The translations under genes were made by a program, and so were the position numbers. A stretch of DNA of 11,709 bases from the IMG/VR virus record IMGVR_UViG_3300037455_000372, positions 1 to 11,709 of that record; one strand, given 5' to 3'. Source of the stretch: a virus (lineage: Duplodnaviria; Heunggongvirae; Uroviricota; Caudoviricetes). Shown in pieces: positions 1 to 11,427 of the stretch (the stretch's first letter is position 1; each line of letters opens with the position of its first letter). Under the pieces are notes generated by a model. The model made no database searches. It was not told the origin of the DNA and worked only from the letters and a program-made list of their open reading frames with translations.

Positions 1-781
1 AGTCACGGACTAACCTGTGCGATACTTGATGAAGGAAGTTTTTCCTTCTGTTACCCAGTTTTACATAGGCTGCGGCCAGTTGAATACGAACTTTCTCGTA
101 TCGACTGCCACCTTTCTTCGCCTTTGCTAGTTTCCTCTGCAAATGCCTAATCTTTCGCTCCGACTTCTTCTCGAAATGCGGATTCTTAATATTTTCTCCG
201 TTAGATAGAACAATGGTTGATTTGACACCGAGGTCGATTCCTACGCATTCGCCAGTATGTTCCATCTCTGGTACATCAACATCACAGCAGATTGAGCAAT
301 AGTAGTTGCCTTTTTTGCTCTTCTTGATTGTCACATTGTAGATTTTCTTGATGTTTTCGTGCTCGAATGTCTTGCCGAAACGGCACTTGACCATACCAAC
401 CTTCGGTAGTACAATGGAATTGCCAACAATTAGTTGCTTAATATCCTTATGGCACATGGCATTCCGGTAGCTCTGCTTGTCCTTCTTGGACTTGTATCTC
501 GGATACTTGGATTTGCCGGTAAAGAAGTTCTGGTAAGCTTGATTCATATCCATATAGGCATTAGCCAGTCCTTGTGAGTCAACTTCTTTCAGCCATTCCC
601 ATTCTTCCTTAAACGACTTCAATTTCGGCTGGAAGGACATCTTGGTCTCTTCGTAGATATATGACTTGATTTTAAGGCACTGGTTATACACGAAACGACA
701 GCAACCGAAGGTCTTCGCAAAGAATACCTTCTGCGCCTTGTTCGGATATAGCTTGATTTCTATGCCTTTCTTGACTATCAT
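1..781 (-). CDS. tnpB: RNA-guided endonuclease TnpB (IS200/IS605 family), 3'-truncated by the window edge
   Basis: Manual translation from ATG at 781, 260 codons open to the window edge: MIVKKGIEIKLYPNKAQKVFFAKTFGCCRFVYN...EWEWLKEVDSQGLANAYMDMNQAYQNFF...YPRYKSKK...VGIDLGVK...KNPHFEKKSERKIRHLQRKLAKAKKGGSRYEK...RRKNFLHQVSHRLVRD. Typical TnpB N-terminal HTH, YPRFKSK-like motif and RuvC-I motif with Asp183 intact (nt 233-235). Not in the supplied ORF track. Confidence 0.95.
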   Translation of the reverse strand, partial: MIVKKGIEIKLYPNKAQKVFFAKTFGCCRFVYNQCLKIKSYIYEETKMSFQPKLKSFKEEWEWLKEVDSQGLANAYMDMNQAYQNFFTGKSKYPRYKSKKDKQSYRNAMCHKDIKQLIVGNSIVLPKVGMVKCRFGKTFEHENIKKIYNVTIKKSKKGNYYCSICCDVDVPEMEHTGECVGIDLGVKSTIVLSNGENIKNPHFEKKSERKIRHLQRKLAKAKKGGSRYEKVRIQLAAAYVKLGNRRKNFLHQVSHRLVRD

Positions 782-818
782 ACGAAAAATCCTACCGGAA
801 CTCGCACTTCCGGTAGGA
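782..818 (-). terminator. Terminator-like hairpin plus U-tract immediately upstream of the tnpB ATG
   Basis: Minus strand TCCTACCGGAA-GTGCGAG-TTCCGGTAGGA (perfect 11-bp stem, 790-800/808-818), then TTTTT CGT ATG. Confidence 0.6.
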
Positions 819-883
819 CACAATGTACCTAAGTACATCTTAAACTTTCCCACGACGACAAGTGCGAGTTGCCTTCGTATATC

Positions 884-920
884 AGTTTATATATGTAGCA
901 AATTTTCCGAAAATCGTCAA
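884..920 (-). promoter_or_regulatory. Promoter region of tnpB: weak sigma70-like TTGACG-17-TACATA overlapping an ATATAAACT motif
   Basis: -35 at 915-920, -10 at 892-897 preceded by TTGC (this -10 lacks the conserved last T). ATATAAACT at 892-884. Confidence 0.45.
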
Positions 921-9091: not shown

Positions 9092-9667
9092 ATGAAATAT
9101 CCTTGTACAATGGGCGTACTCCGGACGGAAGCCGGACTGAAAATCAAGCAGCGAATCAGCCAATATCTCGAACCGAGGTTCAAGATATTCTACGTCGAGC
9201 AAGATCCTCCCGGAAAGCTGTTCGAATATCCCGGCATTATGTTCGCATTGAAGATGGCCGTCGACCTAAACAAGCCGACGCTATATATCCATACCAAGGG
9301 TGCCGCCGACCCTCACCATATGTGGTACCAAACGCCAGTTAAAAAACTCTGGGCTTACGAGTTCGGAACCGAGAAAGTGGTTAAGACATACCAGAGAGCG
9401 TGTACAGACGTACCCACGGTCATCTGTCCTATTGCTGGGTCCGAAAAGCAGACTTGGTGGAACGGAATGATTATCAACCCAGCGGCAGCCAAGGAAATCC
9501 AGAAGACATTCCACTTCGACACGAACCGTTTCTACTACGAGTTCTCGATGTGCAACCTTCCAACGGTGAACGTCGTATCATCCGCCATATCGGGAACCCT
9601 CAGCGAGGACGATACCAACCGCCTACTGAGGGAAATTACCAAGGATATGCCGGATATCGATTATTAG
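9092..9667 (+). CDS. Putative glycan-modification-associated protein (LYIHTKG motif)
   Basis: 191 aa; FEYPG...TLYIHTKGA...WWNG pattern resembles uncharacterised proteins I recall beside glycosyltransferases in phages and giant viruses (not verified); starts 1 nt after the upstream stop. Confidence 0.6.
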   Translation: MKYPCTMGVLRTEAGLKIKQRISQYLEPRFKIFYVEQDPPGKLFEYPGIMFALKMAVDLNKPTLYIHTKGAADPHHMWYQTPVKKLWAYEFGTEKVVKTYQRACTDVPTVICPIAGSEKQTWWNGMIINPAAAKEIQKTFHFDTNRFYYEFSMCNLPTVNVVSSAISGTLSEDDTNRLLREITKDMPDIDY

Positions 9668-10518
9668 AATATATGATCGCTCATTGGACCGCGTTTTTGG
9701 CCAAGGTGAGCTAGTGACATTTTTCGCCGTGTCTCTTCGCTAATTGGTTTGCGTGGTTTATTGCTGGCTGCTATAGTTGCGTTTCGTTTTTTGACGATTT
9801 CATCCTTACGCTCCGCCCACATTTGCTTCATTCGTATACTGCGAGCAGCTCGTTGTTCTGGTGTAGCTTTCTTTCCAGTTCTATTGGCTTTGTTAGCCTC
9901 TACAATTCGGCGACGACCTTCTTCTGATAAAGGGTGCGGTCGACCTCGACGAACTTCCGATAAATGAGCCTTTTGTTCTTCAGTCCAGTGACCGCCAGTC
10001 CTTTCATTTCGTGTTTTAACAGCTTTCCGTGCTATTTCTGGGTCACGTTTACGACCAGTAAGCGTTTGTGATATCTTCTTGCGCTGTTCTTCGGATATTG
10101 GTCTTCCTTTACTCGTTATTGAATTGTATTCGACGGATTCCAGAAATGCGGTTTCATACGCGGTTGCAATGGATTTGGCTTGGTCTTCCGACATCTCCGT
10201 AATATATCGTGCTTTATCATCAACCATTAGCCTAAAGGTTAATGCCATTGGCGATTTAAAAACTGGCTTTGCTAGTACATAATAGTAATAATGCACCATA
10301 AAGTGGTCTCTAACAGCTAGGCTGATAAGATTGTCTAAGTCGTTGTCGATGTCTTCCCCTAACAGTTTGCTAAAGCATTTGGGGAATTTATGATGTAACG
10401 CTCGACCGTCGTTGCATCCCTTCTTTTTAGGAAAGCTTTCGTTTGCGTTGAATATGGCAATTACTTCTTGCCACAGCGGATTTTCGGTATCAAATACCTT
10501 ACTAAAATCGTGTTCCAT
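9664..10518 (-). CDS. HNH homing endonuclease with multiple NUMOD3 DNA-binding repeats
   Basis: LHHKFPKCF...DNDLDNLISLAVRDHFMVH nuclease motif; NUMOD3-type repeats ISEEQRKKISQTLTG, WTEEQKAHLSEVRRG, LSEEGRRRIVEA and ISEETRRKMSLAHLG. Confidence 0.85.
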   Translation of the reverse strand: MEHDFSKVFDTENPLWQEVIAIFNANESFPKKKGCNDGRALHHKFPKCFSKLLGEDIDNDLDNLISLAVRDHFMVHYYYYVLAKPVFKSPMALTFRLMVDDKARYITEMSEDQAKSIATAYETAFLESVEYNSITSKGRPISEEQRKKISQTLTGRKRDPEIARKAVKTRNERTGGHWTEEQKAHLSEVRRGRPHPLSEEGRRRIVEANKANRTGKKATPEQRAARSIRMKQMWAERKDEIVKKRNATIAASNKPRKPISEETRRKMSLAHLGQKRGPMSDHIF

Positions 10519-10570
10519 AATATAAAAAGGCCAGATGACGCCTAAAAATGGAACACAGCATCATCCGGCC
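10519..10570 (-). terminator. Terminator-like hairpin plus U-tract immediately upstream of the HNH-NUMOD3 ATG
   Basis: GGCCGGATGATGC (10570-10558) / GCGTCATCTGGCC (10541-10529): 13 pairs including 2 G-U, 16-nt loop, then TTTTT ATATT ATG. Confidence 0.65.
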
Positions 10571-10618
10571 CGAAAAATCTCTATCCAGACAGGTTCCATT
10601 CCATCTGAACTATCAATA

Positions 10619-10627
10619 AGTTTATAT
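10619..10627 (-). promoter_or_regulatory. ATATAAACT motif, candidate late promoter
   Basis: Exact copy, 100 nt upstream of ATG 10518. Confidence 0.5.
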
Positions 10628-10743
10628 GGTGGAACCGATTTCTTATTCAATAAATTACATCAAGAGACGGATTGGTGGTTAAACTCATACCACCAAGTTT
10701 ATAAGTTTACGCAACAAGTCCGAGCCGTCGCAGCCGTGGCCGG

Positions 10744-10779: not shown

Positions 10780-11427
10780 ATGATCAATTCGTACATATAT
10801 TGCGGTTCAGAAGACAAGTATGACTGGGACACACTGTTTCAAGAGTGCTTCCCTATTGACAACATAGCCCGGAAACATATGATCCAGGTTATCAACGAGC
10901 TACGTCAGCGAGTGTCCAATACCGAAAAGATGACGCAGCACCATATCATTCCGCGTTGTTTCTACGAATACAAGAACCTGAAGTGCGACAATTCGCAGAA
11001 CAACCTGATTTACGTTACCCAAGAGGAGCACCTGTTCCTTCATTCGTGCGCTGTCGCTTGCTGTAACTATAATCTCAAGTCGAAGCTTAAACAGCCGGTA
11101 ATCGCGATGCTGGGCTACTGGAAGGACGCACAGAAAGAAGGGATACGTAGATACGTCGCTAACGGTGGCAAGATGGGACCTCCACCGAAACAACGACCAG
11201 CAGAGTCTATCTGGAAGCCGATTATAGAGAAAGTCAACGCGAACGAAATGACTGTTAGAGAAGCATTGTCGATATTGAATTTGAAGCGCACTACATTCTA
11301 TAAATTATTTATGAATGAACTAAACCGAGATAGGAATGTTTATTCACGTACAATGAGTGCTATGCGCACCAACTCGGTTCATTCCTCTTCATCGTCCTTG
11401 ACGACGATGTCTTCTCCGACCGAGTAG
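10780..11427 (+). CDS. HNH endonuclease fused to a resolvase/invertase-type arm and HTH
   Basis: TQHHIIPRCF...DNSQNNLIYVTQEEHLFLH nuclease motif, then AQKEGIRRYVANGGKMGPPP...MTVREALSILNLKRTTFYK, resembling the C-terminus of serine recombinases. Confidence 0.8.
   Translation: MINSYIYCGSEDKYDWDTLFQECFPIDNIARKHMIQVINELRQRVSNTEKMTQHHIIPRCFYEYKNLKCDNSQNNLIYVTQEEHLFLHSCAVACCNYNLKSKLKQPVIAMLGYWKDAQKEGIRRYVANGGKMGPPPKQRPAESIWKPIIEKVNANEMTVREALSILNLKRTTFYKLFMNELNRDRNVYSRTMSAMRTNSVHSSSSSLTTMSSPTE

Follow-up and report, generated by a model that had tools for sequence, protein, structure and literature searches.

A conserved two-hairpin leader RNA before an HNH-NUMOD3 homing endonuclease gene of a large phage, and its possible role as a translational gate

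Introduction

On the minus strand of the phage record IMGVR_UViG_3300037455_000372 (Caudoviricetes), an HNH-NUMOD3 homing endonuclease gene is preceded by a leader that is a real, selected RNA element: two hairpins, here called hp1 and hp2, whose loops are complementary to each other, the loop of hp2 being complementary also to the first bases of the gene. The window, by which we mean the whole stretch of 11,709 nucleotides that was analyzed, is the first 11.7 kb of a 355,392-bp phage sequence with 49% G+C. The best explanation that we can offer for the leader, held tentatively and with a confidence that falls a little short of an even balance, is a T4-like gate on translation that depends on the 5' end of the transcript and to which a decoy of the start site has been added as a refinement.

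Because homing endonucleases and nucleases of the TnpB type cut DNA, hosts and elements both need them to be tightly restrained, and what is known from experiments about the restraint of homing endonucleases in phages comes almost entirely from T4 and a few of its relatives. The module described here, a promoter-like box together with its leader, appears to be portable with the nuclease gene and is better conserved than the protein that it would control. Its architecture is common to four unrelated nuclease genes in a single genome, each with different pairing sequences.

Architecture of the leader

Read along the minus strand, the leader passes from a promoter-like box (ATATAAACT) through hp1 and hp2 to a short U/A-rich tail and the start codon (Table 1). 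The original prediction, made from the letters of the window, had described a 13-bp hairpin before the gene, and this hairpin is present as hp2 (core 10570-10558 / 10541-10529, with two G.U pairs), as is the UUUUU that was said to follow its stem directly (10528-10524 in the window, then AUAUU, then AUG). Both complementarities claimed for its loop are likewise exact: GTGTTCCAT at 10556-10548 (RNA GUGUUCCAU) is the complement of ATGGAACAC at 10518-10510, the first nine coding bases, and GTTCCATT at 10554-10547 (RNA GUUCCAUU) complements an upstream decoy, AATGGAAC at 10600-10593. Since 10554-10548 is used by both, the pairing of the loop with the start and its pairing with the decoy are mutually exclusive, as had been proposed.

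Two features had been overlooked in that first reading. The decoy, AAUGGAAC at 10600-10593, is the entire 8-nt loop of hp1, and the decoy/loop pairing is therefore a loop-loop (kissing) contact. A further copy of the hexamer GTTCCA stands at 10635-10630, the hexamer being present fourfold, as GTTCCA at 10635-10630 (element a) and 10554-10549 (element c) and as TGGAAC at 10598-10593 (element b) and 10517-10512 (element d). Elements a and c are each complementary to both b and d. Element b resembles a start site, reading AUG-GAA-C in this leader and GUG-GAA-CUC in the leader at 238280 that is treated below, and bases 10556-10555 of c match d but not b.

Table 1. Coordinates of the leader and its elements, predicted pairings with their energies, the gene, and the members of the leader class
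Feature	Position	Strand	Remarks
Element a, (G)GUUCCA	10630..10636	-	immediately 5' of the promoter-like box; complements b (7 nt) and d (6 nt)
Promoter-like box ATATAAACT	10619..10627	-	resembles T4 late promoter; kept in all relatives
hp1, 10-bp hairpin, four G.U pairs	10583..10610	-	-9.5 kcal/mol; first base ~3 nt past the predicted transcript start
Element b, AAUGGAAC	10593..10600	-	hp1 loop; start-region mimic; complements c and a; invariant in the six relatives
hp2, 13-bp core stem, 14-16-nt loop	10529..10570	-	RNAfold: 15 bp, -26.1 kcal/mol
Element c, U-GUGUUCCAUU in hp2 loop	10547..10557	-	complements b (10554-10547) and d (10557-10548)
U/A-rich tail UUUUUAUAUU between hp2 and AUG	10519..10528	-	varies among relatives: UUUUCAUAUU, UAUUUGUAUU
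Element d, start region AUGGAACAC(G)	10509..10518	-	can pair with c (9 bp + one G.U) or with a
Long-range helix, 5' arm AAAUCG/GUUCCA/AUAUAAA	10621..10641	-	pairs with 10526-10505 (UUUAUAU/UGGAAC/CGAUUU); buries U and G of AUG
b:c duplex			-11.9 kcal/mol (loops only: -8.3)
c:d duplex			-14.1 kcal/mol
a:b duplex			-14.9 kcal/mol
a:d duplex			-20.1 kcal/mol
Second box-like motif TTATAAACT, one mismatch	10696..10704	-	TATAAAC at 10703-10697; unconserved in L019 and L020
HNH-NUMOD3 homing endonuclease open reading frame, 284 aa	9664..10518	-	Pfam NUMOD3; PHROG 655 and 314 'homing endonuclease'
Class member: tnpB	box at 892		
Class member: HNH-NUMOD3 gene	box 10627-10619	-	
Class member: DUF559/zinc-finger protein	67345-67209	-	
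Class member: DUF7487 / PHROG 'homing endonuclease' protein	238280-238407	+	

Conservation of the leader

Five loci that share the leader (L019, L020, L021, L026 and L031) were found by scanning JGI metagenomes with a homologue alignment, and together with the window they make six sequences. The proteins of the five relatives are 37-94% identical to that of the window. Of the 101 leader columns, 89 are invariant in the six sequences, as against 13 of the 33 third positions of codons within the opening 99 bases of the gene, and identity between the two subgroups into which the sequences fall is 91-92% in the leader, 70-80% in coding bases 1-99 and 59-62% in coding bases 100-240. Variation is confined to the spacer that follows the box, the linker between hp1 and hp2, the U run within the hp2 loop, and the tail, with position 10585 as the lone exception; there, L019 and L026 have A in place of G, so that a U.G pair of hp1 becomes U-A. 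The hp2 stem does not vary, nor does element c, beside which only the length of the adjoining U run changes, and element d is invariant except at 10509 (G or A). Element a consists of six invariant columns that stand as an island amid variable flanks, and the homology among the six sequences begins ~25 nt upstream of it, so that a travels with the cassette.

The fold is also specific to one strand, at -36.6 kcal/mol for the minus strand and -18.7 for the plus, with six G.U pairs across the two stems; for hp2 by itself, the complementary strand folds much more weakly (-14.7 kcal/mol).

The leader is not coding. An upstream open reading frame (ORF) from the AUG in b was considered and rejected, as it runs for 12 codons in the window and L020, for four codons in L019 and L026, and is fused in frame to the gene in L021 and L031. 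The fusion in those relatives is caused by a +1 and a -1 indel that bring the AUG of the hp1 loop into the frame of the gene, and it is because of this fusion that the proteins P0003, P0004, P0006 and P0007 carry a spurious N-terminal extension of 27 residues (MEPVWIEDFSGRMMLCSILGVIWPICI). Gene callers have in this way turned the leader into a false N-terminus in several database proteins, which matters for annotation. An I-to-T change in the extension of P0004 (likely AUA to ACA) would make the closing G.U pair of hp1 into G-C.

No Rfam family matches the leader: the covariance models gave two chance-level hits only (E ~5, at 15-16 bits where the gathering scores are 41-60), neither of them in the leader. 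A 17-mer from hp1 found four chance hits among viral contigs, a motif of the hp2 stem in which the loop was left free had no match in viral or genome contigs, and neither blastn against phage records nor a single-protein scan of viral contigs gave a match.

Competing pairings and the long-range helix

In the minimum free energy (MFE) folds of every transcript that contains a, a long-range helix closes around hp1 and hp2 and includes the a:d pairing. The computed probability that the start region is unpaired is ~0.17 in transcripts with a and 0.61-0.71 in a transcript from 10613. The RNAalifold consensus of the six sequences contains the a:d helix too, and within it the pair 10637/10509 is compensatory, being C-G in the subgroup of the window, U-A in L021 and U.G in L026 and L031. 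An A-to-G change at 10523 keeps the pairing between tail and box, as U-A becomes U.G; in long transcripts, the predicted partner of the tail (10519-10528) is the transcribed box. The original prediction had held that transcripts with different 5' ends would fold into an ON or an OFF form, and these folds, with the helix in the consensus, render that part of it plausible.

The promoter-like box and the origin of transcripts

The motif ATATAAACT, which at 10627-10619 falls within the interval singled out by the original prediction, is present in 33 copies in the 355-kb genome, where ~2.7 are expected (a 12-fold enrichment). The copies are nearly all intergenic and aimed at the next gene, often right after a canonical terminator, and in ~22 of the 33 the end of the box is 22-32 nt from a start codon. 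The genes for the terminase large subunit and a baseplate wedge protein stand behind copies of it. When ten genes behind other boxes were annotated with PHROG, one could be named (the baseplate wedge gene), and the label 'late' depends for this reason on the baseplate wedge and terminase genes only. These motif statistics, taken with the features of T4 late promoters, suggest that the box may be a promoter of T4-late style. By analogy with those promoters, we take the cassette transcript to start near 10613, ~3 nt before hp1; a and the box would then be missing from the cassette's own transcript.

Only two of the 33 boxes, the HNH box and one other, are preceded by GTTCCA at a distance of 30 nt or less. 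In L026, an ORF of the same orientation ends ~90 nt before a, and the box itself is a variant of the TTATAAACT type. The window holds such a motif farther upstream, at 10704-10696 (Table 1), and if this is a promoter, its transcripts would include element a. The same motif overlaps a perfect 8-bp hairpin, UUGGUGGU...ACCACCAA, at 10697-10672 on the minus strand. Elsewhere in the genome, ATATAAACT boxes also occur as pairs set back to back on opposite strands and aimed at divergent genes, at 322123-322142 (2 nt apart) and 160871-160917 (~30 nt apart).

A leader class before selfish nuclease genes

Four of the 33 boxes head long leaders (100-122 nt), and all four of these precede selfish nucleases (Table 1). 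We call these leaders box 892 (tnpB), HNH, 67345 and 238280, and with L080 and L081, which are relatives of the 238280 gene, they make up the six versions of the class that we compared. In all six, a b strand lies 13-20 nt past the box and complements the loop of a GC-rich hairpin over 8-11 nt, and this c-bearing hairpin ends 3-20 nt before the AUG, with a U-rich run after it. The loops of the other class members are 20-30 nt long. The b:c sequences are different in every one of the six versions, with a double compensatory change between 67345 and 238280 (GUGGCACUC/GAGUGCCAC as against GUGGAACUC/GAGUUCCAC). The decoy pairing is the best-supported interaction of the leader because it recurs with different sequences in all six versions.

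The loop/start pairing has a narrower distribution, being found in two of the six versions: in the HNH leader (9 bp and one G.U) and in 238280, where GAGUUCCA pairs with UGGAACUC over 8 bp. These two leaders align better than shuffled sequences do (z = 5.7) and, on this alignment, are probably homologous. Between them, c changes from GUG to GAG as d changes from CAC to CUC, a compensatory swap of U-A to A-U, and c:d extends 2-3 bp past its overlap with b:c. Of the covariation and conservation that the original prediction had put forward as checks, then, b:c varies in a compensatory manner across the class, c:d shows one compensatory change, and a to d do not vary at all in the six close relatives; the complementarity of loop and start is kept in those relatives and lost from the other four class versions.

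Two further observations concern members of the class. The leaders 67345 and 238280 (~110-120 nt, to which L066 and L067 may be added) are homologues, and both their strand-loop pairing and their hairpin stem show compensatory changes. In the tnpB leader (779-892, minus strand), AUACGAA 3 nt past the box complements UUCGUAU, which spans the start codon, and it is possible that AUACGAA is a start-sequestering strand at the extreme 5' end of the transcript.

A different conserved leader precedes the MVH-type homologues of the HNH-NUMOD3 protein (L001:2360-2530, L022, L023, L025, L029, L030, L032, L039 and L060). Here a box containing TATAAATA precedes a pair of hairpins whose loops, GGCG and CCGCCA, complement each other, and an AAGGAGG ribosome-binding site (RBS) lies in the 3' arm of the second one; the variable inner hairpin has compensatory changes. 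This leader is bistable, as a 14-bp b:c duplex that would free the RBS comes to within 1-4 kcal/mol of the state with two hairpins. The same design, with loops GAGCGAG/CUCGCUC, stands before a DUF7487-type gene in L096 and L099. The bistable MVH-type leaders thus lend support to the idea that b is an anti-sequestor and the c-bearing hairpin a sequestor.

In other phages (L090-L093, L095, L097 and L102-L105), hairpins flank a TATAAATA box ~100-170 nt upstream of the called starts of DUF7487-type endonuclease genes, and their loops are complementary and covarying (UUGGUAG/CUACCAA, UUCCCG/CGGGAA, UUUCCAC/GUGGAAA and UUACCGG/CCGGUAA).

Proposed mechanism

The gate that we favor can be set out as follows. 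The interval would be the 5' leader of a self-contained cassette of promoter, leader and homing endonuclease ORF, and it would act as RNA, restraining translation of the nuclease according to where the transcript started. Transcripts that read through from upstream would include a; in them, a and the RNA of the box would pair with the start region and the U-rich spacer, and the gene would be off. Alternatively, a may take b in such transcripts, so that c seizes the start, which would again turn the gene off. Transcripts from the cassette's own box would start ~3 nt before hp1 and lack a; in these, b, being made before d, would kiss loop c and leave the AUG free until c swaps to d, which would be a leaky on state. 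Further damping of expression may come from the stable hp2, which is 10 nt from the AUG, and from the U-rich tail, probably through crowding of the ribosome's landing site and possibly through partial termination.

The fullest version of this scheme would have a hairpin loop whose partner is a mimic of the start in the on state and the true start in the off state, an upstream element that strips the decoy away in read-through transcripts, and a whole leader family of this kind before selfish nuclease genes that lack a Shine-Dalgarno (SD) sequence in large rumen and gut phages. We regard that version as possible and on balance doubtful. If it were true, it would be a four-segment, attenuator-like logic that works on translation initiation. 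A decoy mechanism would in turn be a compact, protein-free way to tie translation to the origin of the transcript, of relevance to RNA switches and to the biology of mobile elements.

Several points weigh against the proposed gate. The first concerns complementarity as such: a complement of at least 9 nt between the start window and the 100 nt upstream is found in 3 of 337 crude genes of the genome, where 1.25 are expected, and we discarded complementarity as stand-alone evidence after this genome-wide control. It is the position in a hairpin loop and the conservation that make the loop/start complementarity non-random, and not the complementarity itself. Elements a, b, c and d are unvarying among the six close relatives, and support for b:c and c:d therefore depends on the comparison across the class, in which c:d is missing from four of six versions and a is confined to the family of the HNH leader. 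Motif statistics are the ground for calling the box a promoter, and T4 late promoters the ground for placing the transcript start, so both are best regarded as putative. As for read-through, the adjacent upstream gene is divergent (10780-11427, plus strand), and the candidate sources are an ORF at 12410-11379 or the weak box at 10704-10696. Finally, the energies given here omit pseudoknot and kissing geometry. Full 8-nt pairing of an 8-nt loop would not be easy on structural grounds, and c:d is probably limited to about 7 bp because 0-1 nt separates the hp2 stem from c.

Alternative explanations

An alternative that we think rather unlikely is that the leader is a constant damper: a fixed, compact hp1-hp2 kissing complex beside an AUG without an SD would lower translation in every transcript, and the likeness of b to the start, together with a, would be an evolutionary by-product, for example of a duplication of the start region. 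The pairing b:c is the sole one common to the six class versions, and in each version the distance from the end of hp2 to the AUG is 3-20 nt, as constant damping would have it; the spacings a-c and b-d, both exactly 81 nt, would fit an old duplication. The 81-nt units are, however, not significantly alike beyond the hexamers (score 25 against 14.7 +/- 7 for shuffled sequences), and a tandem duplication of an 81-nt unit, which we tried as a candidate, found no support in the alignment (z ~1.5). Nor would a constant damper account for a as a conserved island amid variable flanks, for c bases 10556-10555 that match d and not b, or for the compensatory c/d change in the 238280 leader. The two-state switch of the original prediction thus stands in part: the loop has two exclusive partners, and b:c is the conserved core of the class, while these facts are compatible with constant damping as well as with switching, and c:d is present in only two of the six versions.

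The original prediction had also combined the switch with an attenuator. Spelled out by us, hp2 and the U run would stop most transcripts from the box (~90 nt, 10613 to ~10524), read-through would yield the nuclease mRNA, and the leader-derived small RNA could pair in trans (c with the start, b with a). We judge this improbable as the main explanation. In its favor, U5 comes directly after a GC-rich stem of 13-15 bp in the window and in L020, the equivalent hairpins of all six class versions are trailed by a U-rich run, and both loops have targets (a and d) on longer transcripts. The U run is replaced by UAUUUGUAUU in three of the five relatives (L021, L026 and L031), however, and reads UUUUC in L019; the hp2 loop has 14-16 nt, where the ordinary terminators of this phage have 4-5; and a terminator scan that allowed loops of 3-8 nt did not call hp2. 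No antiterminator pairing was found: none of the pairings of a, b, c and d touches the hp2 stem, and hp2 persists in the MFE and centroid structures of all forms of the transcript. The AU-rich tail could equally be an unstructured landing site for SD-less initiation or a partner for the RNA of the box. Given the U5 that is lost in most relatives, the long loop and the lack of a pairing that disrupts the stem, we consider the attenuator unproven; partial termination at hp2 is possible.

That the four TGGAAC/GTTCCA hexamers are instead a DNA operator for a repressor, perhaps the NUMOD3 endonuclease itself in the manner of I-TevI autorepression, strikes us as very improbable. The hexamers do form four copies within 125 bp, in alternating orientation and at spacings of 37, 44 and 37 bp, with a and b flanking the box as a 7-8-bp inverted repeat in six relatives, and I-TevI binds an operator that overlaps its own late promoter (PMC2988022). 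Against this, the stems that flank the hexamers are equally conserved, and their G.U pairs have meaning only in minus-strand RNA (-36.6 against -18.7 kcal/mol); the complementary strands of other class members differ in sequence, which fits mutual pairing better than the site of one protein; and half-sites 30 bp apart would be unusual for a single protein. That two hairpin loops match each other and the start by coincidence is hardly credible: the background of ~1.25 per genome for a 9-nt complement between start and upstream sequence would permit a single such match, but the leader is better conserved than the adjoining protein-coding DNA, the hexamer is fourfold with every copy a conservation island, and the design recurs with different letters.

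The homing endonuclease gene and its setting

Among the products encoded in the window are a terminase large subunit of T4 type and several HNH nucleases. The HNH-NUMOD3 ORF is inserted antisense among plus-strand phage genes; its product has the HNH motif within the N-terminal domain, and 363 homologues of the 284-aa protein were found. In an alignment of 22 homologues, the ATG at 10518 is the conserved start, with M1, H3, D4, F5 and S6 invariant (N-terminus M-x-H-D-F-S). Inspection of the leader before this ATG (UUUUU, AUAUU, then AUG) found no SD sequence. The stops of this gene and of a convergent plus-strand ORF of 191 aa (9092-9667) share 4 nt (9664-9667). The same plus-strand neighbor is next to the HNH gene in L019, and two additional genes intervene in L020.

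Comparison with known systems

The nearest known systems are the homing endonuclease genes of T-even and related phages. In I-TevI, I-TevII, I-TevIII, segB and mobE of Aeh1, a hairpin sequesters the RBS and has a late promoter embedded in it (Edgell, Gibb & Belfort 2010, PMC2988022). The leader described here is similar in that it belongs to a homing endonuclease gene whose start is buried, in silico, only in transcripts initiated upstream, and in that an AT-rich box, a putative promoter of late type, forms part of the 5' strand of the inhibitory pairing, so that the cassette's own transcripts would escape. It is different in that there is no SD here and the AUG itself is predicted to pair; in that the inhibitory helix is long-range and encloses two hairpins (~100 nt); in that the hairpin loops can pair with each other, one mimicking the start and the other complementing it; and in that the box is ATATAAACT and not TATAAATA. 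A second comparison is with seg43(25) of Aeromonas phage 25, where a very stable hairpin lies just upstream of the RBS without sequestering it (PMC2988022). There, as with hp2, a strong hairpin stops just short of the region where translation of a free-standing endonuclease gene is initiated, although neither loop-loop nor loop-start pairing has been described for seg43(25).

Mobile elements of other kinds offer a looser parallel. IS10 is subject to 'fold-back inhibition', in which the transposase gene of the element is guarded against impinging transcription and its translation repressed by the structure of the mRNA. At the left end of IS200 and in the 5' untranslated region of its tnpA, a terminator stops transcription that impinges on the element, the SD is sequestered in a stem-loop, and an antisense small RNA acts as well (Ellis, Trussler & Haniford 2015, PMC4513863). 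The likeness is that a mobile element shields its nuclease or transposase gene from impinging transcription and uses mRNA structure to repress translation. IS200, however, relies on the three devices just named, its terminator being a separate one, has neither kissing loops nor a mimic of the start, and is not a phage homing endonuclease. Our literature search found no paper describing kissing-loop leaders of homing endonuclease genes. Set beside these systems, our analysis suggests that what sets the HNH-NUMOD3 leader apart is an AUG that is itself sequestered and a module of two kissing hairpins, one loop of which is a mimic of the start.

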